A stretch of DNA of 64,000 bases from an uncultured Bacilli bacterium (GTDB taxonomy: Bacteria > Bacillota_I > Bacilli_A > RF39 > UBA660): positions 5,783-69,782 of the forward strand of contig CANRBS010000001.1 in assembly GCA_947628895.1 (NCBI GenBank), given 5' to 3'. The notes beneath the pieces were generated by a model. The model was not told where the DNA came from. It worked only from the letters and a program-made list of their open reading frames with translations, and searched no databases. Position numbers and translations under genes: made by a program. Positions 231-59,807 of this stretch are shown piece after piece (the stretch's first letter is position 1; every line of letters starts with the position of its first letter).

Positions 231-901
231 TCAATTTTTCCTTTCTCTCTAAGTAAATTTAAATTTTCTTCAGTTATTATATCATATTTTAAGAATAACT
301 CAATTGCTTCTTTATTAAAGTTTTTACTATCATCTTTATAAGTTTCACTAAGTTTATATATTTCATCTATAACTACTCTTGTATCTTCTACAGCTTCACT
401 CATAACAGGTGTATTATCTAATATTTTATTAGCAAGAATAGATTCATCAATACCAGTTATTTTCATAAATGGTTGAGAGAATACAAAAAGTAAGATAAAC
501 GCGATTATATAGCTTTCAATAAATCCTACAACTCCTCCTAGTAACTTAGAAACAAAACCAAATACAACTGTAAGCTTTAATACTCCTTCAATAATACCAC
601 TTATTTTTAATAATATTCTAAGTATTAAATATAATACTGAAAATACTATAAAGAATGCTATTAACTCATATAATAATATATTTAAAATTGATACACCTTT
701 AAATATTCCATTGAAATTAAAGAATGGTAAATTTTTATATAAGAATGTTGAAAGTGGCACTCTTAAATGAAATGAAACAATTAATACTACTACTAAGCCT
801 ACAAGTAAAACTGTTTGTTTAATAAATCCTCTTCTAAATCCTGACATAACCCCTAGAATTAAAAATATTACAATAATTGCATCAAGTATACTTATTTTCA
901 T
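227..901 (-). CDS. CvpA-family membrane protein (colicin V production protein-like)
   Basis: The 224-aa protein has several TM helices and an acidic C-terminal tail. It matches CvpA in size and topology. Confidence 0.5.
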   Translation of the reverse strand: MKISILDAIIVIFLILGVMSGFRRGFIKQTVLLVGLVVVLIVSFHLRVPLSTFLYKNLPFFNFNGIFKGVSILNILLYELIAFFIVFSVLYLILRILLKISGIIEGVLKLTVVFGFVSKLLGGVVGFIESYIIAFILLFVFSQPFMKITGIDESILANKILDNTPVMSEAVEDTRVVIDEIYKLSETYKDDSKNFNKEAIELFLKYDIITEENLNLLREKGKIE

Positions 902-2394
902 TATTTTCCTCCTTCTAAATTAAGTATATATGGATAATCCATACTTCCATCTCCACTTATTACTTTTACGGTTTTTGAAATTGTGATTACTGGTCTTACA
1001 ACAGCCTCAGTTGATACTTTACTTTCAATAATTACATTATTATTTACTAAAAAATTATATGCGGCACTTCCATTATAATATGCAGGAGTAAGAGTCCAAT
1101 ATGAATCATTAAAGTTCAAAAAACTATCATCTTTAAATACATCAAATCCAGCATTTATAAGTTCATTTTTAGTAATTAAAGCAATTGGATAATTTAGTAC
1201 TTTACTACCATATTCACTATTTACTGTAAGTCTATCATTTATATTATGGCATTCATAACTAATTTTATCATTATTCATTTCATAATAACCTGTATTGTTA
1301 TTTGCAAATCCAAGAGTACCATAAAGTACTCTATTATATGTAAATTCTTTAGTTTTTCTATTACTACAATAAATTGTATCACTTGTAATATAATCTTTAT
1401 ATTCACTTAAATTCTCTTTAAAATAATTTTCTAAATAAGTTTTAATATCACTTGAAGATGTATTATTATGTTCAAGTTTATAATCAAGACTACTAACTGT
1501 TCCATACATAAAGCCAACATAAGCATTAGAATTAGATTTACTATTAAATACACTACTAAGAGATGAATCTATGCTACATACATCATTTTCATATTTACCA
1601 CTATATATAAGTCTTATTCCTCTATCCATTGTAGTTCTTATTATTTTATAACAATTATTTCCTAAAACTACGGTATTTTTTAAATCTTTACTTCCCCTAT
1701 AAAAATAAATAATTCCACCATTTATACTATTATTTGTATAATAAACACCACTATTATTTATATCATTTAAATCAATATTATTAATTGAATCTATAACACT
1801 ATTTTCAATAAGTTTTCCAAGTGAATCTTTAGTATAAATATCTTCACCAACATTAATATTAGAAGATGGTACTATATTTATATTTGAAGAAAAAGTTTTA
1901 TTCATATTATTACTTTGATCTTTATCAGTTTTAAGAAAAGTAATAATCATTTTATAAGAATGTGTAGATCCTTTTTTTAATTTTATATTGCTAGCTATTA
2001 ATTCATCACTTGTAGGAATTATACTTTCACTTCTACTAGCACCTAAACCATTTTCTTCATAAATAGAATAAACCAAATCATCTGGATTTGCAAAATTATT
2101 TACTACATTTTCAAGTTTTATATCATAATATATATCATAGTCACCTTTATTTTTAACTGTAAATGATTTCGTGATACTATCTCCAGTATAACCATCTACC
2201 ATAGTAACATTACTTGTATCTGTAAATACAACAGCTGCATTCCCATCAAATGTATTTATATTGATTTTATTACTTTCACCAAATACATTAACTGAAAAAT
2301 ATGCATAAGTACAAAATAGCATAAATATTGAGATTAATATAATTCCAATACTTGCAAGTAACATACTTAATTTATAATTATTCATAATTCTCAA
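901..2394 (-). CDS. N-terminally anchored or secreted Asn-rich protein with a TasA/camelysin-type (SipW-cognate-like) N-terminus and a conserved C-terminal RPVITIS motif
   Basis: The N-terminal TM segment is followed by TYAYFSVNVFGESNKININTFDG, which resembles T[FY]A[FY]FSD.E.S.NN.F.AGTLDL. The C-terminus is VRPVITISK. A paralogue lies at 49805..51106. Confidence 0.35.
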   Translation of the reverse strand: MRIMNNYKLSMLLASIGIILISIFMLFCTYAYFSVNVFGESNKININTFDGNAAVVFTDTSNVTMVDGYTGDSITKSFTVKNKGDYDIYYDIKLENVVNNFANPDDLVYSIYEENGLGASRSESIIPTSDELIASNIKLKKGSTHSYKMIITFLKTDKDQSNNMNKTFSSNINIVPSSNINVGEDIYTKDSLGKLIENSVIDSINNIDLNDINNSGVYYTNNSINGGIIYFYRGSKDLKNTVVLGNNCYKIIRTTMDRGIRLIYSGKYENDVCSIDSSLSSVFNSKSNSNAYVGFMYGTVSSLDYKLEHNNTSSSDIKTYLENYFKENLSEYKDYITSDTIYCSNRKTKEFTYNRVLYGTLGFANNNTGYYEMNNDKISYECHNINDRLTVNSEYGSKVLNYPIALITKNELINAGFDVFKDDSFLNFNDSYWTLTPAYYNGSAAYNFLVNNNVIIESKVSTEAVVRPVITISKTVKVISGDGSMDYPYILNLEGGK

Positions 2395-10056: not shown

Positions 10057-11238
10057 TTATTTGTCTTTTATTAGTTTTTTAGTAATAATATTATTTATTT
10101 TATCATCATATCTTTTACTTATTATAATTTTATCATAATCATCTGATAAAATACTAAAATATTTAATTAAATTATTATATTCATCTGAAAACATACTTTC
10201 AAGTAAGTCTACATATTCATCATTATAACAAGATAATAAAAACCATTTAATAAATTCTATATTTGCATTTTCAAAAATATTTAACCCATTTTTTAAAATT
10301 ATATTTTCTCTTTTATATTTTATATCTTCACATGCAGATTTTATATCAATATTATTTTTATTACTATGATAAGATACTATTAATGTTAAAGCTTCTATTA
10401 ATGCTTCTTCTAATGCATATTGATATTTTAAAAAATAATTTGCTTTTTTTACATCATTATAATTATGTATATTTTTATTAGTGGCATATAAATTTATAAT
10501 TCCATAAATATCATTAATTGTATTTGATTTAAAATCTTGTAATATTTTAATTGGCATTATATCATATTCATCTAAATAATCTACTATTTTACAATATAAA
10601 TCTGTTGAATAATCAAATTTAATATCACTTATATTATATATTTTATATGAATTATCAATTTTATCATAAGTATATACTTGAATATAATCTTTCTTATTAA
10701 TAACTTTTAAAATAATTATATAATTATCTTTATAGCACTTATCATAATAATTATTTAAAATATTATCACATTCATCATATATTTTTTTATCTTTAGGTTT
10801 TAATGAATAATAATTTTTTAAATTTTCAAGATAAAATATATTATTTGCATTTTTTAAAATTAAATCTCTATTAGAATGAAGAGTTTCATGAATAATAGTT
10901 TCCCCAATATCTTTTATAATATTTTTTTTACTTATTTTATTTGAATTTTTTAAATGATTTTCAATATAATAAGCTAAAATAACTATTCTATTATTATTAG
11001 TTTTTATATAGTTATCTTCATAATAAGCTATATCTCTATTAGAATGTGCATTTAAACTACAATTATAATCTATTATAATATCAGTGTTATATAAATGATT
11101 AAATGCGGTTTTATTTATATTTAATAAATCAAAAAAATGTTTAAGTGAAAAGATTGCATATTCTCTTGCTGAATATACATAACTATATATAACTGCATCA
11201 GTATATTTAGTTTTATTTTCGCCTTCCACTTTTATCAT
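10057..11238 (-). CDS. cytoplasmic HExxH motif protein (putative zinc metallopeptidase-like), paralogue B
   Basis: The 393-aa protein has no signal peptide and contains the IIHETLHSNRD motif. It shares FNHLYN.DI, IIHE.LH.NRD.LLKN, DKKIY.EC and LEE.LIE blocks with 11255..12385. Confidence 0.5.
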   Translation of the reverse strand: MIKVEGENKTKYTDAVIYSYVYSAREYAIFSLKHFFDLLNINKTAFNHLYNTDIIIDYNCSLNAHSNRDIAYYEDNYIKTNNNRIVILAYYIENHLKNSNKISKKNIIKDIGETIIHETLHSNRDLILKNANNIFYLENLKNYYSLKPKDKKIYDECDNILNNYYDKCYKDNYIIILKVINKKDYIQVYTYDKIDNSYKIYNISDIKFDYSTDLYCKIVDYLDEYDIMPIKILQDFKSNTINDIYGIINLYATNKNIHNYNDVKKANYFLKYQYALEEALIEALTLIVSYHSNKNNIDIKSACEDIKYKRENIILKNGLNIFENANIEFIKWFLLSCYNDEYVDLLESMFSDEYNNLIKYFSILSDDYDKIIISKRYDDKINNIITKKLIKDK

Positions 11239-11254: not shown

Positions 11255-12385
11255 TTATTTTAATCTTCTTTTAGCAATTTCGTCAATAATTATTTCATCA
11301 TTTAAAGAAATTTCAAAGTTATTAGAATATATTTTACTAACTAATTTTATAAATTTAGCATAATCATTTAAAAATATATTTTCAAGTTCATTTACTCTTT
11401 CATCTTGATATGATGATAAAAGAAATTTATTTATAAATTCTTCTTTGTATTTATAAAATATTTTAATACAATTTAGAAGTAAAACATTATTACTTTTAGA
11501 AATAATTTGATTGCAAAATCCATCTATATCTAAAAAGTCTTTATCTTTATGATAATCTATAATTGAAGTCATAATTTCAATTAATATTTCTTCTAATTCT
11601 GTTTGATAATTAATAAGCATATTAGCTTTTTTTATTTCATTTGTTTTATTGAATCTTCCATGTGGGGCATATATTCCTGTGATTTCATATACATAATCTT
11701 GATTATTATTATGATTAATAAATTCTTTTATAGGTATTATATTATTAGCTTTTATATAATTTATAATATTATTGTAAGAATTATTCATATTATTATAATT
11801 AATTAAATTAGATATATTATTTAATTTATATATACTAAAATAATTTTCTTCTTTATCATAAATATAAACAAGACTATATTCTTTATAATTTACAATTTTT
11901 AATACTTGTATCTTTTTATTTGAAATAGTATTATTTAAAGCGATTAAGCATTCATTATATATTTTTTTATCTTCTAAACTAAAATCACAATAATCTAAAT
12001 AATCAAGAATATTTAAATAATTAATTTCATTTTTTAATAATACATCTCTATTAGCATGTAATTTTTCATGAATAATAGTATATGCAATATCATCATAAGA
12101 TTCAAAATCATCTATAAATTCAGTATTTAATGAAATACCATTTCTATTTGGATTATATTCACAAGTAGCTTCATAATGTGCTTCTTCATCTTTTTTACAT
12201 TCACAAGTATCATAATTTACTCTAATATCAATATTATATAAATGATTAAATAATGTATAGTCATAACCTAATAATTCTATAAAATGTGCAATTCTTTTAT
12301 TTGCTATAATATTTGATTTTCTTAATTTATATCTAATACTATTAATTTCTTTTTTATCTTTCTTACTTGAAATAACTTTTATCAT
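11255..12385 (-). CDS. cytoplasmic HExxH motif protein (putative zinc metallopeptidase-like), paralogue A
   Basis: The 376-aa protein contains the IIHEKLHANRD motif. It is a tandem paralogue of 10057..11238. Confidence 0.5.
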   Translation of the reverse strand: MIKVISSKKDKKEINSIRYKLRKSNIIANKRIAHFIELLGYDYTLFNHLYNIDIRVNYDTCECKKDEEAHYEATCEYNPNRNGISLNTEFIDDFESYDDIAYTIIHEKLHANRDVLLKNEINYLNILDYLDYCDFSLEDKKIYNECLIALNNTISNKKIQVLKIVNYKEYSLVYIYDKEENYFSIYKLNNISNLINYNNMNNSYNNIINYIKANNIIPIKEFINHNNNQDYVYEITGIYAPHGRFNKTNEIKKANMLINYQTELEEILIEIMTSIIDYHKDKDFLDIDGFCNQIISKSNNVLLLNCIKIFYKYKEEFINKFLLSSYQDERVNELENIFLNDYAKFIKLVSKIYSNNFEISLNDEIIIDEIAKRRLK

Positions 12386-16094: not shown

Positions 16095-16907
16095 TTAAAA
16101 ATTAATTTCTTTTTCTACTGTATTATATAAATCATCTAATTTTGGCTTTCTCATTTGACTAAATATTATATATAATCCAATTATTATCATTAATATACTT
16201 ACTACTTGTGCTACTTTGATATTATAAAACATTAAACTATCTGTTCTAAACCATTCAATTACTAATCTAATAGCTCCATACCAGAATAAATAAAATCCTG
16301 TTATTTGTCCATTTTTTGTATATTTTCTTCTTCTTATAATTAGCATTATTATAAATCCAATTAAGCATGCAAGTGATTCAAAATAGAACATTGGTAAATG
16401 ATAATTACCATTTATATACATATTATCAATTATAAATTGAGGTATTATTTTCATATTTACAAGTGTATCATATGTTACAGCTGTGCCATAAGCTTCTCCA
16501 TTAAAGAAATTTCCCCATCTACCAATTGCTTGTGCAATTAATACTGCTGGTACAATTATATCTAACATTTTCATTAAATTAACTTTATATTTCTTACAAT
16601 ATCTAACTATAACTAATAAACCTAATATAATAGCACCATGTATTGCAAGACCACCATGCCATATCATAAATATTTCTTTAATATTACTTCCATAATAATC
16701 CCAATTAAATAATACATAATAAATTCTCGCACCAATTATACCAAATATAATAGTCCAAAACATCATGTTAAATACAAATTCTTTTTTAATTTGATATCTT
16801 CTACTTTCAGCCATTATTAATGTATAAGCAATAATAACTGCAGCTAAAATAAGAACACTATACCATCTTACTTCAAAATTTCCTATTGTTACTAAAACTG
16901 GATCCAT
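16095..16907 (-). CDS. lgt: prolipoprotein diacylglyceryl transferase
   Basis: The HGGLAIHG and GRWGNFFNGEAYG signature blocks are present. Confidence 0.9.
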   Translation of the reverse strand: MDPVLVTIGNFEVRWYSVLILAAVIIAYTLIMAESRRYQIKKEFVFNMMFWTIIFGIIGARIYYVLFNWDYYGSNIKEIFMIWHGGLAIHGAIILGLLVIVRYCKKYKVNLMKMLDIIVPAVLIAQAIGRWGNFFNGEAYGTAVTYDTLVNMKIIPQFIIDNMYINGNYHLPMFYFESLACLIGFIIMLIIRRRKYTKNGQITGFYLFWYGAIRLVIEWFRTDSLMFYNIKVAQVVSILMIIIGLYIIFSQMRKPKLDDLYNTVEKEINF

Positions 16908-16910
16908 AAT

Positions 16911-17342
16911 CTACCTTCTTCCTATATTATTTGTTATTATATTATCAAATATAATTCTCATAACACTTATAAATATTGCTATTATAAACATTGAGAATAT
17001 TCCACTAATTTCAAATGCACTTCCCATTAAAACATCACATAATTTTAATATTATCATATTTACAATTGGATATGCTATTCCATAAGTTAATATATTAAGT
17101 GGAAGTGTCCAATATATTAATAATGGTTTTACTGTATAATTTAATATACTTAATATTAATGCTGCTATTATTGAATACATAAAATTCTTAATATATAATT
17201 TTTCAAATATACCTTGAGTTATATATAATACAAGTGCATATACAATAACACCAACTATTATTTGTAATAAATCAATATTAATATCATTGTCATTTTTATT
17301 TTTATTTTTTCTTTCTATTTTATATATTTTTGCTTTTGACAT
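16911..17342 (-). CDS. DUF360/YvlD-like 4-TM membrane protein (phage holin 4_2 superfamily)
   Basis: The 143-aa protein has four TM helices. YvlD-like proteins are commonly encoded near lgt and hprK in Firmicutes. Confidence 0.5.
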   Translation of the reverse strand: MSKAKIYKIERKNKNKNDNDINIDLLQIIVGVIVYALVLYITQGIFEKLYIKNFMYSIIAALILSILNYTVKPLLIYWTLPLNILTYGIAYPIVNMIILKLCDVLMGSAFEISGIFSMFIIAIFISVMRIIFDNIITNNIGRR

Positions 17343-17348
17343 ATATTT

Positions 17349-17807
17349 TTAATTACAAGAACTTAAATAGCTCTCATAATTTCCTCCTTCAGTTTTATAA
17401 ATATAATTTCCTGCATCTCCACAATATAAATATGCATTTCCTGTATCATATATATCATTCTCATTTGCTTTTAAAACTACTATTCCACTGCATGGAACAC
17501 TTTTATAAAAAATTGTATCAAAATATTCTTTCTCTTGTAATGTAGAAATACAAACATATTTTGTTTTATCATCTATTTTTTTAAATTTAGAATTACATTC
17601 TTGCCTATGAGTATCATCAATTGAATGAGTACAATAATCTTGAACAAATAATTTAGCAGCATCTATTGCTTCACCTTCTTGAGCTTGCATTGTATCATCA
17701 ACAGATTCATTAAATATATCAATAACATTTGGTATAACTATAATTACTAATATTGCTATAATTCCAATTACTGCAAGTAATTCTACCATTGTAAAACCTT
17801 TTCTCAT
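17349..17807 (-). CDS. short type IV pilin/pseudopilin (ComGC-like) with a Cys-rich globular domain
   Basis: The prepilin leader is MRKG|FTMVELLAVIGIIAILVIIVIPNV, with F at +1 and E at +5. The mature part contains six Cys. The start was moved to the ATG that follows a GGTGA RBS. Confidence 0.75.
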   Translation of the reverse strand: MRKGFTMVELLAVIGIIAILVIIVIPNVIDIFNESVDDTMQAQEGEAIDAAKLFVQDYCTHSIDDTHRQECNSKFKKIDDKTKYVCISTLQEKEYFDTIFYKSVPCSGIVVLKANENDIYDTGNAYLYCGDAGNYIYKTEGGNYESYLSSCN

Positions 17808-17926: not shown

Positions 17927-18601
17927 TTATTTTTTTAATTTTTTTATATTATTTTTTATAGATTCTATTTCATTTAATATTTTAATTTTATTTTTATAAC
18001 TATTTCTTAATAATATAAAACATAATATAGAAGAAATAATAAAATTAAAGAAAATAATTATAACCGTATCACTTAAAGGCTCAGTTTTGTTTGAAGGATT
18101 AGCCATTTTTTCAAATACATCATACCTATCTTCACTATTATATAATTTCACTATTTCTTCTTCAATTTGACTATTAAAACTACTAGAATAACCTACAAAT
18201 GTTTTATCACCTATTATTATAAAAGGGATACCAAATTCTTGTGAACTTGTATCATAATTAAAAAATTCTCCAACTTTATTTAAAAGTTTTGCATTATTTT
18301 CATCATACCAAGTTTCAAAAGAAATAAAATTAAAATAATTTGCATATTTTTTTAATATCGTATCATTTATATAATTAATAAAATCACTACAATGAGGACA
18401 ACCTTTTCCTCTAAATAAGTAAATATTAATTTTATCTTCACTTTCTTTATAATTACTTAAATCAGTATTAATACCCTCACTTTTAAATACATCTTCTAGT
18501 GTTTCAGTATTATAATCAGATATATTTATTTCTTCTGCTTTTATATTAATAGTATTAAAAATTAATAATAAATTTAAAATCAATAAAATTATTTTTTTCA
18601 T
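17927..18601 (-). CDS. secreted, membrane-anchored thioredoxin-fold thiol-disulfide oxidoreductase (DsbA/BdbD-like)
   Basis: A signal peptide is followed by GCPHC in a thioredoxin-like fold. A C-terminal TM anchor is present. The RBS is AAAGGAG. Confidence 0.7.
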   Translation of the reverse strand: MKKIILLILNLLLIFNTINIKAEEINISDYNTETLEDVFKSEGINTDLSNYKESEDKINIYLFRGKGCPHCSDFINYINDTILKKYANYFNFISFETWYDENNAKLLNKVGEFFNYDTSSQEFGIPFIIIGDKTFVGYSSSFNSQIEEEIVKLYNSEDRYDVFEKMANPSNKTEPLSDTVIIIFFNFIISSILCFILLRNSYKNKIKILNEIESIKNNIKKLKK

Positions 18602-18733: not shown

Positions 18734-20473
18734 CTAATTTTTAAGAACAATCCTAGAAGTGATGCTATAATATACATCACCGGTACTTCTAGCAAAACGA
18801 AATTGACCTGCTGTTACATTATCACTATGACCACCTCCACGATCAATCCAACTATATGAAGAATCAAGAAAGAATGAATAATCTTTATACCAAGCATTTT
18901 TATAACTTCCATCACTCCAAAATGGTCCCATTTCTCCTGTTGCATCTCCAAGGATCCTATATTTATATGTTAGTTTATCACTTGATGATGAATATTTATC
19001 TAAATATTTTGTATATGTTTCATTTGATACTATATTTTTCATTCCACTAACATTTAAATCACTACCATCTCTATATGAAGCCATATATTCCCAAGATCCG
19101 CCACTCATATCATATACTCCAGTTATATTTCCTGTAGTACTTGCTAATTTTCCAGTATCTGTATTCCATAATGCATTTTCTGTTGTACTAGTAATTGCAT
19201 CTTTAGTATTAGCTGCATATCCTGTTAAAAAATTACTATTGTTATTAATTCTTACTTCATCTTTTATTCCATATTTAGAGTGTGAAAGATATGCAACTGC
19301 TCCCCACTCTGTATTTTTCATCATATGACTATCTAAGCTTCTATTAAAATTGTAAGCATTCATAAATAAATTATATACTGTTGCACCTCTCCATGAATAT
19401 ACATTAGGTTTTATTATTATATTATTAGGTTTTTCTTCATCTACTTCTGAATTTTCTTTTATCCAAGTAGATATATTTTCATCAGTTATTGGTTGTGTTG
19501 TATCACTATTTTGATTATATCCTGTTTCAAATTTTCCTACCCAAAATCCATTTGATGGTATTGATAAAAATGCTGGATGTGTCATTAAATCTCCTACTTT
19601 GCAATCTTTTGTAGCCACACTTGCTCTTGATGAACCACTTTCCATTGGTGTTATACATTCACCACTTACTTCACTTGTTGTTCTTGTTCCAAATTCTATC
19701 TCTATTTCTTTTATTTGACTTTCTGGTTGACTACTTTCTAAGCCTTCATAGTTTCCAATATTGAATATTCTATAACTATATTTTGGTATCCATACAAAAT
19801 ATGCCCTTATATCACTTTCTAATATTGTATCTCCTTCTTTATATTCTTTACTTGGAGTGTCTACTAGTATTACTGCATTTGCCCATTTCTTTGATGTATA
19901 TTTATACCATTCATCATACTCATCCGCATATGTTACTACACCTGTATCTGATAACATTATTGGTATCATTTTATCTCCTAGTACTGGGTCAGCTCCATTT
20001 AATTCACTTTCTACATATTTTGTTTTTGGTTTTTCTCCATCAATCAATTGATTTCCTTTACAATCAGTTATACTTGTCTTGGCTTCTTCTACTTTATACT
20101 TTTTACCTATGTCTTCTCTTTGTATTCCACTTGATGAAGAAGCTATTAATTCATTTGCTTCATCTCTTGCGGATATTTCTACTATCTTCCCTTTATCATT
20201 AAATTTTACTACATATAATATGTTACTTCTTCCATCTAAATTTAATACATTTGTACTACTATCAAAACATCTTATTTCTTTATTTCCAATTGAAGAAGAT
20301 ACATATTTATCTTCAGCACTTCTTATTATATTTTGTACTTCACGGGTAAATGTATTTACTTTTGCATCTCTAAACATTTTAAGTACATTTGGAAGTGCTA
20401 TAATAACTAAAATTGCTAAAATTGCTATTACTGCTAGTAACTCTACTAATGTAAATCCTTTTTTATCTTTCAT
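18734..20473 (-). CDS. modular type IV pilin: prepilin N-terminal domain fused to an FGE/SUMF1-like (C-type-lectin-fold) C-terminal domain
   Basis: The leader is MKDKKG|FTLVELLAVIAILAILVIIALPNV. A D-region disulfide (C...C) is present. The C-terminus reads ...EWGAVAYL...GVYDMSGGSWEY, resembling the FGE motif G.YDMSGNVWEW. The protein is about 80% identical to 58074..59807. Confidence 0.7.
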   Translation of the reverse strand: MKDKKGFTLVELLAVIAILAILVIIALPNVLKMFRDAKVNTFTREVQNIIRSAEDKYVSSSIGNKEIRCFDSSTNVLNLDGRSNILYVVKFNDKGKIVEISARDEANELIASSSSGIQREDIGKKYKVEEAKTSITDCKGNQLIDGEKPKTKYVESELNGADPVLGDKMIPIMLSDTGVVTYADEYDEWYKYTSKKWANAVILVDTPSKEYKEGDTILESDIRAYFVWIPKYSYRIFNIGNYEGLESSQPESQIKEIEIEFGTRTTSEVSGECITPMESGSSRASVATKDCKVGDLMTHPAFLSIPSNGFWVGKFETGYNQNSDTTQPITDENISTWIKENSEVDEEKPNNIIIKPNVYSWRGATVYNLFMNAYNFNRSLDSHMMKNTEWGAVAYLSHSKYGIKDEVRINNNSNFLTGYAANTKDAITSTTENALWNTDTGKLASTTGNITGVYDMSGGSWEYMASYRDGSDLNVSGMKNIVSNETYTKYLDKYSSSSDKLTYKYRILGDATGEMGPFWSDGSYKNAWYKDYSFFLDSSYSWIDRGGGHSDNVTAGQFRFARSTGDVYYSITSRIVLKN

Positions 20474-49804: not shown

Positions 49805-51106
49805 TTATTCTTTATTTAATTTCCAATATTCATCAAAATATATATTTACATTATTACTTATAGTAATTACTGGTCTTATATATAAACTACTTTTATATGT
49901 ATTATTATAAATATCATGTAGTTTTGAATTATTAATTTCATTATTATTTATACTAAGTATTCCAAATATAGCACTTTCATCTGTTGCATCAATATGTCTT
50001 GTAGATAAATAATATGGACTATAATATTTATTATTTTTTTCTATAAATAATTCATAATAAATGTCATTTATAAAATTATTTTTAGTAATTTTATTTATAT
50101 TATTTGTTTCATGTAATGTTATAGAATTTACTATTTTAAAATTTGAAGTTATATAATTATTACCTTCACTATTAAGAAGTACACCATTTGTATGAATATT
50201 ATTTATAATACTATTTTTTTCATCTTCATATATAGTTGGAATATATATACTATCCATATTATATGTTTTAATATTATCATTATATTCTATTAGTTTAGTA
50301 GTAGTATATTTATGAATATCATCTAAATTTAAATTTCTAGCATTAGTACTATATTTTGTAGAATACAATGAATTACAAATATCATTTAAAATATATACAG
50401 CATTATTATATCCATTAGATCCTCCAAGTAACATATTATTTGATAGTAAAATTGCTTCTTCAGCAATTAAATCAATAGTTCCATCATTATTAATATTTAA
50501 GATTCTATAATTTGTTTTTATTGCTGATAATTCTAAATCACTGTTATTTTGTGTAAATTCTTTTTGTAAATTATATTTTTTATTTTCATCTATTTTATAT
50601 TCAAAATAATCACCAACAGATATTTTATCTTTAATTTCTTTATAATTAAGTGGTGTTTTTATATCATCTAATGTATTATTAATATAACCACCTACAACTA
50701 AAAATTTACAATTTATTGAATCACTTGAATTATTAGATATAAATAATTTTATTTTAATTTTACTATTTCCATCTATCGTACCATCCGTATTATTTTCATA
50801 AATATATAAATTCAAATTAGTATTTTCTAAATAAAATAATTTATAAAATGTATTAATTTTATTTAATGATTCTATTTCTAATTCAATTAAACTATTTCCA
50901 GGTGAAACTGTTATTTCATTAGTATTAGTATTATTTATTTTAATACTATAATTTAATTTATCTATATGCATTTCTACAGCTCTGTGGTTATTTGAATTAT
51001 ATATAAAATTAGAATATGATATTCCAAATGAAAAACATACTACAATAAGTAATATTACTAAAACTACTACATTCTTTTTTAAAAATTTAATATATTTTTC
51101 TTTCAT
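49805..51106 (-). CDS. N-terminally anchored Asn-rich surface protein, paralogue of 901..2394 (C-terminal RPVITIS motif)
   Basis: An N-terminal TM helix is followed by SYSNFIYNSNN. The C-terminus reads YIRPVITISNN. The protein is 433 aa. Confidence 0.35.
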   Translation of the reverse strand: MKEKYIKFLKKNVVVLVILLIVVCFSFGISYSNFIYNSNNHRAVEMHIDKLNYSIKINNTNTNEITVSPGNSLIELEIESLNKINTFYKLFYLENTNLNLYIYENNTDGTIDGNSKIKIKLFISNNSSDSINCKFLVVGGYINNTLDDIKTPLNYKEIKDKISVGDYFEYKIDENKKYNLQKEFTQNNSDLELSAIKTNYRILNINNDGTIDLIAEEAILLSNNMLLGGSNGYNNAVYILNDICNSLYSTKYSTNARNLNLDDIHKYTTTKLIEYNDNIKTYNMDSIYIPTIYEDEKNSIINNIHTNGVLLNSEGNNYITSNFKIVNSITLHETNNINKITKNNFINDIYYELFIEKNNKYYSPYYLSTRHIDATDESAIFGILSINNNEINNSKLHDIYNNTYKSSLYIRPVITISNNVNIYFDEYWKLNKE

Positions 51107-56112: not shown

Positions 56113-57879
56113 CTAATTTAATAATGTTATTTTTGCATAACCATTTCCAGTATGTCCAACTTCTGTTCCACCATCTGGTTTTGGCATACTCTCATTTCCA
56201 GCAATCATTTGTGTCTCTGTAAATACTTTTCCACTATAATGGTTTGGAGAGTCTAAATGCTTTATATTATTTTCTGTTGAAGTTGCTGTTATTGCTTTAC
56301 ATCCTGGGTGACCTGATATAAATGAAGATCCACCTGAACCTGATGATTTTGATCTAACATTTTGTGATTTACCACCATAATATCCGCCTCCGCCTCCACC
56401 GACACCATCTCCTGCAGCATAACCAACACCATCCATTCCTTTTCCTAAAGCATACCCACTTGTTTGACTTCCACCTAAAAGTGTATCATATAATGTTCTT
56501 GCAGAAAGTCCTCCTCCTTCGCCAACATCAAATTCCCAAGACCTTCCACCACCGCCAGCTGCAACCATTATTCTTGATTTTAAACTTTCAAAATTATCCC
56601 ATTTACCACTAGTTAGTCTTACATCAGTAGCTCCTCCGCCTCCACCAGAAGTCTCATCGTCACTACCATCAGTAGTTCCAAGACCTCCACCATTATATCC
56701 TCCTAGTGAATTTTCTCTTAAAACTGCATCTACTCCTTTACCTCCAACATAAATATATAACTCTTCATCTTTATTTAAAGTTATTTTTCCAGTTGTATAT
56801 GCTCCATTTCCGCCTTCTTTACCTCTCTTACCACTCATTAATGAGGCACCACCTTGTCCACCCCATAATTCAATTTTATATACTCCTGTTTTTGGTACTA
56901 CAAATGTCTCATAATTTCCAGTAAATGTATAATTTACTTTTGACCATATTGCATATAATGTTACTCTACCATTTTTATCACTTGTTAAATTTTTTACTAT
57001 TTCATTATTTTCATATGTTATTACTTTTGAAGTTTTATCTAATGACCAACCTACAAATTGATAACCATCTCTTGTAAAATTATTTGCAGTTAATTTTTCT
57101 TCTTTATCATATGTATGTGTTGATGAAGTTGTTTGTCCAGTTCCTTCATTTGCATTATATTCTACTGTATATGTATGAGCTTCATACTTACTTTCTAACA
57201 CAGTTGTACTATTTAATTTTGATAAATTTTCTTCTACTATATTTCCAACTTCATCAATTACTTTATCTTCAGTATTTGGTATATAATATCCTAAAAAATC
57301 ATATCCTTCTTTTTCTACTACTTTATCTAATTTTGTTATTTGAGTTGTTTTATCTTCTTTATATAATTTTCCATCATTTAAATATCCATAATTTGGAGTT
57401 GAGCCATCAAATGAGATTATTGGATATTTTGTTTCACTTCCTTGAAATATCAAACTTCCATCACAATCAAATATTATTGTTTCTTGACCTCTTTGATTTA
57501 CTTTATATGTTTTTCCTATATCTTCTTTTTTTATTCCATTTTCATTTGTAGCTATTAATTCATAAGTATTATCTACAATTTTTATTTCTGTTATTTTACC
57601 TTTATTTGATAATCTTATTAAATATACCATATCACTTCTTCCATCTAAATCTAATTTATTTTTATTACTATCAAAGCAGGTTACTCTTTTACTCCCTAAT
57701 GATAAAGATACAAACTTATTTTCTGCCTCTCTTATCATATTTTGTACTTCACTTGTAAATGTTTTTTCTGTTGAACCTTTAAATAATTTTAATACATTTG
57801 GTACTGCTATGATTACAAGTATCGCGAGTATTGCTATTACTGCTAGTAACTCTATTAATGTAAATCCTTTTTTCTTCAT
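56113..57879 (-). CDS. modular type IV pilin: prepilin domain, then a Listeria/Bacteroides flg_new repeat, then a Gly-rich C-terminal domain
   Basis: The leader is MKKKG|FTLIELLAVIAILAILVIIAVPNV. The flg_new repeat reads YTVEYNANEGTGQ...DGYQFVGWS...VTLYAIWS. The C-terminal Gly-rich domain reads VYKIELWGGQGG...LYIYVGGKG. Confidence 0.7.
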   Translation of the reverse strand: MKKKGFTLIELLAVIAILAILVIIAVPNVLKLFKGSTEKTFTSEVQNMIREAENKFVSLSLGSKRVTCFDSNKNKLDLDGRSDMVYLIRLSNKGKITEIKIVDNTYELIATNENGIKKEDIGKTYKVNQRGQETIIFDCDGSLIFQGSETKYPIISFDGSTPNYGYLNDGKLYKEDKTTQITKLDKVVEKEGYDFLGYYIPNTEDKVIDEVGNIVEENLSKLNSTTVLESKYEAHTYTVEYNANEGTGQTTSSTHTYDKEEKLTANNFTRDGYQFVGWSLDKTSKVITYENNEIVKNLTSDKNGRVTLYAIWSKVNYTFTGNYETFVVPKTGVYKIELWGGQGGASLMSGKRGKEGGNGAYTTGKITLNKDEELYIYVGGKGVDAVLRENSLGGYNGGGLGTTDGSDDETSGGGGGATDVRLTSGKWDNFESLKSRIMVAAGGGGRSWEFDVGEGGGLSARTLYDTLLGGSQTSGYALGKGMDGVGYAAGDGVGGGGGGYYGGKSQNVRSKSSGSGGSSFISGHPGCKAITATSTENNIKHLDSPNHYSGKVFTETQMIAGNESMPKPDGGTEVGHTGNGYAKITLLN

Positions 57880-57910
57880 TTTATTACCTCTTCTCTATTC
57901 TATATATTTT

Positions 57911-57940
57911 ATTATATCTTATATTCTTAAGTATTATCAA
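57911..57940 (-). promoter_or_regulatory. sigma-A-type promoter of the pilin/flg_new gene
   Basis: The sense strand reads CCCCTTGATA, an 18-nt spacer, then TATAAT. The conserved leader ATAGAGAAGAGGTAATAAAATG follows. Confidence 0.4.
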
Positions 57941-58043: not shown

Positions 58044-58074
58044 ATATAAAAAAAGAAGTAAACCAGTTACTTCT
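58044..58074 (-). terminator. Rho-independent terminator of the pilin-FGE paralogue
   Basis: The hairpin AGAAGTAA-ACCAG-TTACTTCT is followed by UUUUUU on the minus strand. It overlaps the stop codon. Confidence 0.6.
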
Positions 58075-59807
58075 TAATTGGTTGGTGTAAGAACAAGACG
58101 AGAACCATTACTAGGATATGCTACACCCCTATTCCTGTCAAAGTTGAATTGACCAGTAATATATGTATTATTGTAACCACCACCACGATTAAACCAAGGC
58201 TGAGTAGAATGAACAAAATTTGAAAAGTCAGTATACCAAGTACTTTGATTATAACTACCACTACTCCAAAATGGTCCAAGCTCTCCTGTTGCATCTCCGA
58301 GGATTCTATATTTATATAACAATCTATCACTTGATTCTAAATATTTTTCTAAATATTTTGTGTATGTTTCATTTAATACTATATTTTCCATTCCACTAGC
58401 ACTTAAATCACTACCATCTCTATATGAGGCCATATATTCCCAATATCCACCACCTATATCATATATTCCACTTATATTTCCTGTTGTACTTGCTAAATGT
58501 CCTATTGATGTATTCCATTTTGAATTTTCAGTTGCACTTCCTTCTGCGTCTTTTTCATTTGCTGCATAGCCTGTTAAATAATTACTATTATTATTTATTC
58601 TTACTCCATCTTGTATTCCATATTTTGAATATGAAAGATATGCAACAGCTCCCCACTCAGTATTTTTCATCATGTGACTATCTAAGTTTCTTTTAAAATT
58701 GTAGGCACTTTGAAAAAATGTTGCAATTGTTTGATCTCTCCATGAATATACATTAGGTTTTACTATTATATTTGATGGCTTTTCTTCATCTACTTGCGCA
58801 TTTTCAGTTGTCCAAGTAGATATATCAGTATCAGTTATAGGTAAACTTGGATCTTCATTTTGATTATATCCTGTTTCAAATTTTCCTACCCAGAATCCAT
58901 TACTTGGTATACTTAAGAATGCTGGATGTGTCATTAAATCTCCTATATCACACTCCCCAGTTTCTCCACTTTCCATTGGACTTGCACATTCTTTTTTTAT
59001 TTCATCATTTACTGTTGTTCTTGTTCCAAATTCTATCTCTATTTGTTGAACACTACTTTTTTCTGGTTCACTACTTTCTAATCCTTCATAATTTCCTAAA
59101 TTGAATATTCTATAACTATATTTTGGTATCCATACAAAATATGCACGTATATCTGATTCTGCTATTACTTCCCCTTCAGTATATTTTTTACTTGGCTTGT
59201 CTACTAATATTACTGCATTTGCCCATTTCTTTTCAGTATATTTATACCACTCATCATACTCATGTGCATATGTTACTACTCCTGCATCTGATAATATTAC
59301 TGGTATCATTCCACTTCCTAGTACTGGATCAGACCCATTTAATTCACTTTCTTTGTATACTATTTTTTCTCCACTAGTTAACTCATTTCCATTACAATCT
59401 AATATTTGTGTTTTTGCTTCATTTACTTTATACTTTTTTCCTATGTCTTCCCTTTGTATTCCATTTGTATTATTTGCTATTAATTCATTTGCTTCATCTC
59501 TTGCCCTTACTTCTATTACTTTTCCTTTATCGTTAAATTTAACTATATATAATATATTACTTCTTCCATCTAAATTTAATGCATTTGTACTACTATCAAA
59601 ACATCTTACTTCTTTATTTCCAATTGAAGCAGAAATATATTTACTCTCAGCACTCTTCATTATATTTTGTACTTCACTTGTAAATGTATTAACTTTGGCA
59701 TCCCTAAACATTTTTAAAACATTTGGAAGTGCTATAATAACTAGTATTGCTAATATTGCAATTACTGCTAAAAGTTCTACTAATGTAAAAGCATTTTTAT
59801 TTTTCAT
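58074..59807 (-). CDS. modular type IV pilin with an FGE/SUMF1-like C-terminal domain (paralogue of 18734..20473)
   Basis: The leader is MKNKNA|FTLVELLAVIAILA, with Ala rather than Gly at position -1. The protein is about 80% identical to the 579-aa paralogue across the pilin domain, the central IRAYFVWIPKYSYRIF block and the C-terminal domain. Confidence 0.7.
   Translation of the reverse strand: MKNKNAFTLVELLAVIAILAILVIIALPNVLKMFRDAKVNTFTSEVQNIMKSAESKYISASIGNKEVRCFDSSTNALNLDGRSNILYIVKFNDKGKVIEVRARDEANELIANNTNGIQREDIGKKYKVNEAKTQILDCNGNELTSGEKIVYKESELNGSDPVLGSGMIPVILSDAGVVTYAHEYDEWYKYTEKKWANAVILVDKPSKKYTEGEVIAESDIRAYFVWIPKYSYRIFNLGNYEGLESSEPEKSSVQQIEIEFGTRTTVNDEIKKECASPMESGETGECDIGDLMTHPAFLSIPSNGFWVGKFETGYNQNEDPSLPITDTDISTWTTENAQVDEEKPSNIIVKPNVYSWRDQTIATFFQSAYNFKRNLDSHMMKNTEWGAVAYLSYSKYGIQDGVRINNNSNYLTGYAANEKDAEGSATENSKWNTSIGHLASTTGNISGIYDIGGGYWEYMASYRDGSDLSASGMENIVLNETYTKYLEKYLESSDRLLYKYRILGDATGELGPFWSSGSYNQSTWYTDFSNFVHSTQPWFNRGGGYNNTYITGQFNFDRNRGVAYPSNGSRLVLTPTN

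Follow-up and report, generated by a model that had tools for sequence, protein, structure and literature searches.

A modular type IV pilin that joins a Flg_new region to a bacterial relative of the ALK/LTK glycine-rich domain in an uncultured Bacilli bacterium

What is a glycine-rich domain of the type present in metazoan receptors doing at the end of a bacterial pilin? The question is raised by a gene located at 56113..57879 on the minus strand of a 64,000-nucleotide stretch of contig CANRBS010000001.1, from an uncultured Bacilli bacterium of the gut (this whole stretch is the window referred to below). A sequence-only reading of the locus had described a prepilin domain, a Flg_new (Listeria-Bacteroides) repeat and a glycine-rich domain reminiscent of PF12810, and had proposed that one pilin scaffold displays different passenger modules. 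We have followed up this proposal by profile searches, structure prediction and the comparison of homologous loci. The gene encodes a type IV pilin in which the head is followed by probably two repeats, a likely spacer, and by a bacterial relative of the domain with which the human receptor ALK binds its ligand. In ALK and LTK this glycine-rich domain (GRD) is the cytokine-binding module of the receptor.

The open reading frame extends from an ATG to a stop codon at 56113..56115 with zero internal stops, and encodes a modular prepilin of 588 amino acids. All peptides quoted in the sequence-only reading are found in the translation (YTVEYNANEGTGQ, RDGYQFVGWS, VTLYAIWS, VYKIELWGGQGG, GAYTTGKITL, LYIYVGGKG, GGGGGATDV, GGGGRSWEF and CFDS...LDGRS), and the frame exists as described there, with the addition of its strand, which had been left unstated. 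An identical protein (P0001), encoded on a contig of 73.6 kb, is recorded at NCBI. An orthologue of 596 aa (P0024), with 39% identity over 99% of the query, shows the same three-domain architecture and was recovered on three contigs, each assembled from a different sample. A second relative (L008) occurs in a metagenome-assembled genome named 'uncultured Bacilli bacterium' from sample Lapin-021, probably of rabbit gut origin, which is the nearest genome match. Since the architecture of P0024 recurs on three independent contigs and L008 provides a further relative, the gene is not a fusion artefact, and the frameshift or chimera that the sequence-only reading had named as a danger to its own proposal is nowhere apparent in this uninterrupted frame. 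The window is very AT-rich (G+C ~23%), and its housekeeping genes, including tuf, fusA, rpsG, mutS, smc, ftsW and lgt, are those of a cell-wall-bearing Firmicute. The EF-Tu encoded there belongs to a cluster at 90% identity to which NCBI gives the label 'Mollicutes bacterium' (a metagenome-assembled genome). An alternative genetic code was rejected, the long housekeeping frames being intact under table 11. The pilin gene itself is an orphan that adjoins tuf/fusA and a MarR-ABC operon.

The C-terminal part of the protein, residues 314-588 (56116..56940, minus; Pfam envelope 330-587), is an ALK/LTK-type GRD according to Pfam, AlphaFold2 (AF2), Foldseek and profile searches. The Pfam family ALK_LTK_GRD (PF12810) scores 179.5 bits against a cut-off of 24.5 (E 1.4e-52) and is matched over profile positions 6-243 of 243. 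In the AF2 model, obtained from an alignment of 79 homologues, the domain has a pLDDT of ~97, and the top 21 Foldseek matches in the PDB, which are also the sole significant ones, are all ALK/LTK GRD/TG structures (E 1.9e-10 to 2.2e-6, probability 1.0). The same relatives are reached by sequence alone, since a profile of the bacterial homologues matches the ALK and LTK chains at E ~1e-11, with the motifs GGGATxxR, AAGGGG, GGGGGY.GG and G.S.IS aligned between them; a single-sequence phmmer search of the PDB did not reach ALK. The HMMER search with PF09479 and PF12810 and the structure prediction, both suggested in the sequence-only reading, agree with it: the two families score above the gathering threshold, and what had been called reminiscent of PF12810 is PF12810, with ALK and LTK as its best structural neighbours.

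The ALK and LTK structures of 2021 reportedly show the domain as a TNF-like beta-sandwich joined to a polyglycine-II helix lattice, and in the GRD of the target conserved glycine runs alternate with predicted strands. Among the 79 homologues there is hardly any change in the glycine runs and the core strands, variation and indels being concentrated in the loops 345-358, 446-470, 485-495 and 525-575. Such a conservation pattern would be expected of a rigid scaffold presenting variable recognition loops. Searches of the accessible literature turned up no relevant paper on PF12810 or on what the ALK-type domain does in bacteria.

The GRD is preceded by a canonical Flg_new repeat at residues 237-313 (56941..57171, minus), detected both by PF09479 over residues 237-310 (42.1 bits versus a cut-off of 27, E 9.2e-11) and by TIGR02543 (List_Bact_rpt, 35 bits versus 20.95). 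The segment upstream of it, residues ~150-236 (57172..57432, minus), is a probable degenerate first repeat of the same type. Scanned alone, residues 150-236 remain below the Flg_new cut-off (14.7 bits, E 0.033); an internal BLAST comparison matches them to the canonical repeat at E 8e-4. Both segments are present in P0024. In L008 and P0002 a deletion that starts midway through the first segment and stops at the corresponding position in the second has left one complete hybrid repeat with ITLYAHW at its end. An in-register deletion of this kind is expected from unequal recombination between homologous repeats and thus argues for two repeats in the target, whose order is probably pilin, two Flg_new-type repeats and GRD. 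The repeat recognised in the sequence-only reading therefore stands, and its count of one is probably to be corrected to two. The variation in copy number among orthologues, with two copies in the target and P0024 and one in L008 and P0002, suggests that the repeats are a spacer and argues against specific binding. Residues 150-313 were modelled with low confidence in both AF2 runs, because few sequences cover the region and the alignment is shallow there.

The N-terminal residues 1-148 (57436..57879, minus) constitute the pilin module, formed by the alpha-1 helix and a beta-sheet head with the pair Cys68/Cys139. As read from the sequence, the leader peptide MKKKG (residues 1-5; 57865..57879, minus) ends at Gly-1, the predicted prepilin-peptidase cleavage site, and is followed by the hydrophobic alpha-1N segment FTLIELLAVIAILAILVIIAVP (mature +1 to +22; 57799..57864, minus), which contains E+5 and P+22. 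Leader and segment together make up a class III signal peptide, recognised by N_methyl on residues 2-25 (30.5 bits versus 21.2 in Pfam) and by TIGR02532 (30.4 bits versus 16.3 in NCBIfam). The AF2 model places a helix over residues 8-60 and shows a separate folded module in which this extended N-terminal alpha-1 helix lies against an antiparallel beta-sheet, as in the pilin fold. The equivalog cut-offs of ComGE (33.4 bits versus 49), ComGC (30.8 versus 75) and ComGD (23.8 versus 70) were not reached in NCBIfam, and these partial matches span the N-terminal helix only. The residues linked with processing and assembly are almost unchanged throughout the family of this head: F+1 and E+5 are found in 151 of 151 members, P+22 in 150 and G-1 in 147, and most members possess at least two cysteines in the head. 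Among the proteins with a class III motif, taken from the GRD homologues and the paralogous pilins, E+5 is present in 42/42 and G-1 in 40/42.

The same head carries other passengers in the window. A paralogous modular pilin of 577 aa is encoded at 58074..59807 (minus) and a second one of 579 aa, 73% identical to the former, at 18734..20473 (minus); the head of the target is 57-58% identical to theirs. BLASTP aligns the target with the 58074 protein over residues 3-162 only (53.75% identity, E 1.5e-41) and gives no match beyond, so that there is a sharp module boundary at about residue 160. The sequence-only reading had noted the homology of the N-terminal 140 residues with two 'FGE' pilins; the homology is real and reaches somewhat further, to about residue 160, and the FGE label is weak, because FGE-sulfatase is sub-threshold in the 58074 paralogue (E 0.07, 13.2 bits versus a cut-off of 23.3). 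In the leader of this paralogue, MKNKNA before FTLVELL, Ala replaces Gly at -1, which may lower or alter cleavage by the prepilin peptidase.

The reuse of the head extends far beyond the window. A hidden Markov model built from the three window heads and searched against 1.84 billion representative proteins gave 19,467 matches at E<=1e-3, of which 1,124 remain at E<=1e-10 and 15 pass E<=1e-30. Among the best 150, protein length varies between 96 and 904 aa, and in most of them the whole head is aligned. Pfam found N_methyl in all of the 120 relatives that were scanned, together with DUF285 in 17, LRR_5 (BspA-type) in 6, DUF6273 in 5, LRR_8 in 4, Dockerin in 3, PT-HINT and Flg_new in 2 each, and Laminin_G_3, FG-GAP, EF-hand and others in single members; most of the 120 have no recognised passenger domain. 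The idea of one scaffold with different passengers is in this way confirmed both in the window, by the 58074 paralogue, and in other genomes, where the search for further passengers proposed in the sequence-only reading has found many. When the globular part of the head (residues 27-145) was used in a word-indexed search, only two short fragments were retrieved, and a metagenome scan with the head alignment gave no match.

The fusion of a pilin to the GRD is also frequent. Of the 120 GRD homologues that match the target best, 38 start with a class III signal peptide. The share of pilin-GRD fusions falls to 17 of 103 GRD reading frames across a wider set of 80 metagenomic GRD loci, the others being stand-alone proteins of ~280-310 aa, signal-peptide- or membrane-anchored proteins, and giant surface proteins of 3,000-4,700 aa. 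Tandem arrays were found on two contigs, with nine consecutive pilin-GRD paralogues in one (L004 3849..17709) and at least eight in the other (L006 1..14637); they look like a variable surface repertoire. Each gene of these arrays has its own class III signal peptide, and both arrays share flanking radical-SAM, GH31 and tRNA-synthetase genes. The full combination of N_methyl, Flg_new and GRD recurs in P0024, in one gene of the L006 array and, with a pilin-like N-terminus, in L009; in L008, as in L009, a pilin-like N-terminus is joined to the GRD. The target orthologues have housekeeping neighbours, the genes following one another in the order AAA ATPase, ATP-grasp protein, alr, pilin-GRD protein and polA.

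A direct link to filament machinery was found in relatives. A relaxed search for Walker-A and GE[ILVM]RD motifs picked up two loci, L082 (664..4654) and L085, in which a T2SSE ATPase gene (Pfam E 9e-120) is divergent from a gene for a 231-aa pilin-like protein, directly followed by one for a 603-aa pilin-GRD protein. Apart from these two loci, we found no GRD pilin gene directly adjoining filament machinery. The 603-aa type of protein has a Pro/Ser/Thr-rich linker. In L007 a pilin-GRD gene neighbours that of a second modular pilin (N_methyl with Bact_surface_Ig-like), and T2SSF is located 8.6 kb downstream. The contigs described here all have a low G+C content, 23-33%. A strict PROSITE-type T2SSE pattern gave no match in 1 Mb of loci; the 64-kb window contains no T2SSE, T2SSF or peptidase A24 gene, and a motif search detected no A24-like reading frame in the window or in the fetched loci of relatives.

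The GRD occurs in phages as well. It matches phrog_5811, phrog_1589 and phrog_7388, whose function is unannotated in PHROG, at ~1e-33, and is found in at least 95 viral contigs. In tblastn searches the 'glycine rich family protein' of Clostridioides difficile phages is 36-41% identical to the first half of the GRD, its matches covering 41-49% of the domain. Such genes are present in phiCD505 (L171; YP_009195791.1, NC_028764.1 25734..27299) and in 19 other C. difficile phage records, including phiCD119, phiMMP03 and phiCDHM19. They close the tail-fibre module, lying after the tail-fibre/XkdX genes and just ahead of those for holin and endolysin. These phage proteins resemble the target in the shared first half of the GRD and in being extracellular and, by context, structural, and differ from it in having no pilin N-terminus. 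By analogy, the tail-module context and the variability of the loops point to a binding role for the GRD.

How does this protein compare with known systems? The definition and the catalogue of modular pilins are due to Raynaud et al. (2021), who listed 1,219 proteins in 264 architectures (PMC8179133). According to their definition the target is a modular pilin, as it combines the IPR012902 motif and a complete pilin module with non-pilus domains, Flg_new and PF12810 (PMC8179133). Their Dataset S1 includes IPR012902-PF12810 in two proteins and IPR012902-PF12810 x3 in one, IPR012902-IPR005532 (FGE-sulfatase) in eight, several architectures with IPR013378 (Flg_new), and a PilY1 carrying PF12810 (PMC8179133). 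The target shares with the IPR012902-PF12810 entries the fusion of a prepilin N-terminus to ALK_LTK_GRD, whereas Dataset S1 has no entry that combines N_methyl, Flg_new (IPR013378) and GRD. Both modular pilins in general and the pilin-PF12810 architecture were therefore already known (PMC8179133), and the target adds one member to them. What goes beyond the catalogue is how often the fusion occurs (38 of the 120 best GRD matches and arrays of 8-9 genes, as against three pilin-PF12810 proteins in Dataset S1), the tandem arrays, the T2SSE adjacency, the link to phage tail modules and the size of the head family. A paper on TANB77 pilins (PMC11680825) was considered and set aside, as it deals with a different pilus cluster and small pilins.

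The closest studied counterparts are PilB, with a vWA module, and PilC, with a lectin module, of Streptococcus sanguinis, both proven pilus subunits and adhesins (PMC8179133; PMC9934059). Like them, the target has a class III signal peptide, a small pilin module and a bulky C-terminal non-pilus module connected by a linker, in a monoderm host and with a proposed display of the binding module on a filament. It differs from them in its passenger, Flg_new and an ALK-type GRD in place of vWA or a ConA-like lectin, and in being an orphan gene known from sequence alone, whereas the S. sanguinis genes belong to the pil locus and are proven by experiment. The Flg_new repeat is like the B-repeat of internalin B, with ~70 residues and the signature ...GY.F.GW... 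and ...TLYA.W, common to extracellular proteins of Firmicutes and Bacteroidota; in the target it lies between a pilin and a GRD. As for the GRD, it is like the TG (TNF-like + GlyR) domain of ALK and LTK (7LRZ, 7LS0, 7NWZ, 7NX1, 7MZY) in belonging to PF12810, in a fold probability of 1.0 and in the alignment of glycine runs interleaved with beta-strands, and unlike ALK and LTK the target has no EGF-like module, transmembrane segment or kinase beside it. Binding of ALKAL/Augmentor is a feature of the metazoan receptors and not of the Pfam family PF12810; since these ligands are not expected in bacteria, that of the bacterial GRD would have to differ.

We propose, as a reading that we hold to be rather probable, that the gene product is a modular minor type IV pilin in which the GRD is the distal binding module and the Flg_new repeats the stalk, with the machinery encoded elsewhere. 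In this mechanism the precursor would insert into the membrane, and the prepilin peptidase would cut after Gly5 and methylate Phe+1. Through its alpha-1 helix, with E+5 and P+22, the subunit would then be packed into a type IV filament, for whose assembly another part of the genome would supply a PilB/ComGA-type ATPase. The pilin would most likely occupy the tip or else be a low-abundance subunit, and the repeats would form a stalk holding the GRD off the cell as a binding (adhesin) module, the rigid polyglycine/beta-sandwich core of which may carry variable loops that recognise some gut ligand. Several observations weigh against this proposal. The TM-scores of the model to ALK and LTK are low, 0.42-0.45 at most (0.32-0.45 over the 21 Foldseek matches), with ~20% identity, and the word adhesin is used here by analogy and from context, because no bacterial PF12810 protein has a known function. 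Furthermore, no PilB/PilC/PilD-type gene is present in the window or within 10 kb of the orthologues, so that the filament machinery of this genome is assumed and not seen, and three large modular pilins in 64 kb together with arrays of 8-9 genes exceed what is usual for minor pilins of the tip.

The absence of filament machinery from the window and from the surroundings of the orthologues would also suit a surface protein anchored by its pilin head and never polymerised, the head being a general device for export and membrane anchoring that yields single molecules or short stubs. The very large head family with a passenger repertoire like a general surface proteome, the many paralogues per locus and the degenerate pilin-like N-termini of some GRD proteins (L009, L025, L088) are in line with it. 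A mere anchor, however, needs neither an invariant E+5 and P+22 nor a conserved folded head with a cysteine pair, it would still require the prepilin peptidase, and a T2SSE ATPase adjoins the pilin-GRD locus in L082 and L085; we regard this explanation as unlikely, though deserving serious attention. Com pili are the commonest type IV filaments in monoderm Firmicutes, the group of the host, and the best-scoring equivalog models for the N-terminus, below their cut-offs, are ComGE, ComGC and ComGD. The target might thus be a minor pilin of a Com pseudopilus or of another short type IV filament, with a GRD that captures DNA or a polymer instead of serving adhesion. This we consider improbable, as those matches (ComGE 33 versus 49, ComGC 31 versus 75) represent the generic N-terminal helix far below the cut-off, the gene is not in a comG-like operon, and the known relatives of the GRD, namely a cytokine receptor domain and proteins of phage tail modules, include no nucleic-acid-binding one. 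Finally, a chimera in which a frameshift or misassembly has brought a pilin gene together with an unrelated glycine-rich gene, or else a decaying pseudogene, has nothing positive in its favour beyond the source being a metagenome-assembled contig and the protein forming a singleton cluster. It hardly merits belief against the uninterrupted frame, the three independently assembled contigs with the architecture of P0024, the joining of pilin-like N-termini to the GRD in L008 and L009 (in L009 also with Flg_new) and the class III signal peptides of the GRD matches counted above.

With respect to the expression of the modular minor pilin proposed here, a promoter-like TTGATA-18-TATAAT (57911..57940, minus) was found upstream of the gene by a consensus scan, with 11 of 12 positions, followed by a Shine-Dalgarno-like GAGG at ~57887-57890. 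Promoter-like sites in this AT-rich region are no more numerous than in shuffled sequences, which makes the point a weak one; the site is suggestive of a promoter belonging to the gene. Directly after the stop codon of the upstream pilin gene, a hairpin GAAGTAA-ctggt-TTACTTC with a T-run (58048..58073, minus) was recognised by eye. It was not flagged by the terminator scan because it has too few G-C pairs. As it closes the upstream gene, it suggests that the target gene is a transcription unit of its own.

A candidate structural pilin of the same system is a short prepilin of 152 aa at 17349..17807 (minus), with MRKG before FTMVELL and N_methyl at E 5.9e-6. It is identical to a protein found on other contigs (P0287), always before the holin_4_2-like gene and lgt. 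The order short prepilin, Phage_holin_4_2-like membrane protein (143 aa) and lgt occupies 16095..17807 (minus) in the window and is kept in L002 (7382..9079), from the related species that carries P0024, and in four other contigs with the identical short pilin (L172-L175). A search with the short pilin for machinery-linked relatives returned three matches only, all in the lgt context, and no filament machinery was found beside these clusters. Between the short prepilin and the large pilin at 18734..20473 lies a gene (17927..18601, minus) whose 224-aa product has a signal peptide, a thioredoxin-like CPHC motif and, at its C-terminal end, a membrane helix; it matches Thioredoxin_2 below threshold (E 0.004). 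It may be a thiol-disulfide oxidoreductase dedicated to the pilins, an idea based on the conserved pair C68/C139 of the pilin heads.

Elsewhere in the window, two proteins of 497 and 433 aa (901..2394 and 49805..51106, both minus) have an N-terminal membrane helix and similar C-terminal ends (...RPVITIS...). The former shows weak matches to DUF6273, which is also the passenger of 5 of the 120 head-family pilins, and to a camelysin-type N-terminus. A homologue from the rabbit gut (L009 5300..6469) is encoded directly upstream of the gene that joins a pilin-like N-terminus to Flg_new and the GRD. Tandem paralogues of 393 and 376 aa (10057..11238 and 11255..12385, both minus) contain the HExxH-like motifs IHETLH and IHEKLH and are possibly an undescribed metalloprotease pair; the first of them, the only one scanned, has no Pfam match. 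The rabbit-gut relative encodes SpoIVA (L009 13160..14656), from which it follows that this ~25% G+C lineage, labelled Bacilli or Mollicutes and of small genome, is probably a walled spore-former and not a true mollicute.

Despite the interest of modular pilins, which explain how simple type IV filaments gain functions, only the vWA and lectin modules of S. sanguinis have been studied experimentally. The target is a well-supported case of a pilin that bears, as its grafted module, the bacterial equivalent of the glycine-rich domain of ALK and LTK. Current views are not overturned by it, and it will not surprise a pilus specialist. It carries a lesson for annotation, in that 'hypothetical proteins' of this kind can be named. 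To our knowledge, structures of the ALK/LTK-type GRD fold come only from metazoan receptors, and we know of no bacterial role for it. Since the fusion to a pilin is frequent, occurs in tandem arrays and is sometimes found beside a pilus ATPase, the pilin-GRD proteins are a reasonable entry point to the role of this domain outside animals, and also to the attachment of uncultured gut bacteria with small genomes. A bolder view, which we offer as speculation and rate as doubtful, is that the head defines an undescribed carrier family of more than 1,100 clusters, serving as a general surface-display device of small-genome gut Firmicutes, and that the arrays of 8-9 pilin-GRD genes are a variable adhesin repertoire sharing its domain with phage tail-module proteins. 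If this were true, the bacterial relatives, or ancestors, of the ligand-binding domain of ALK and LTK would gain a first functional context, namely receptor recognition on a type IV filament.

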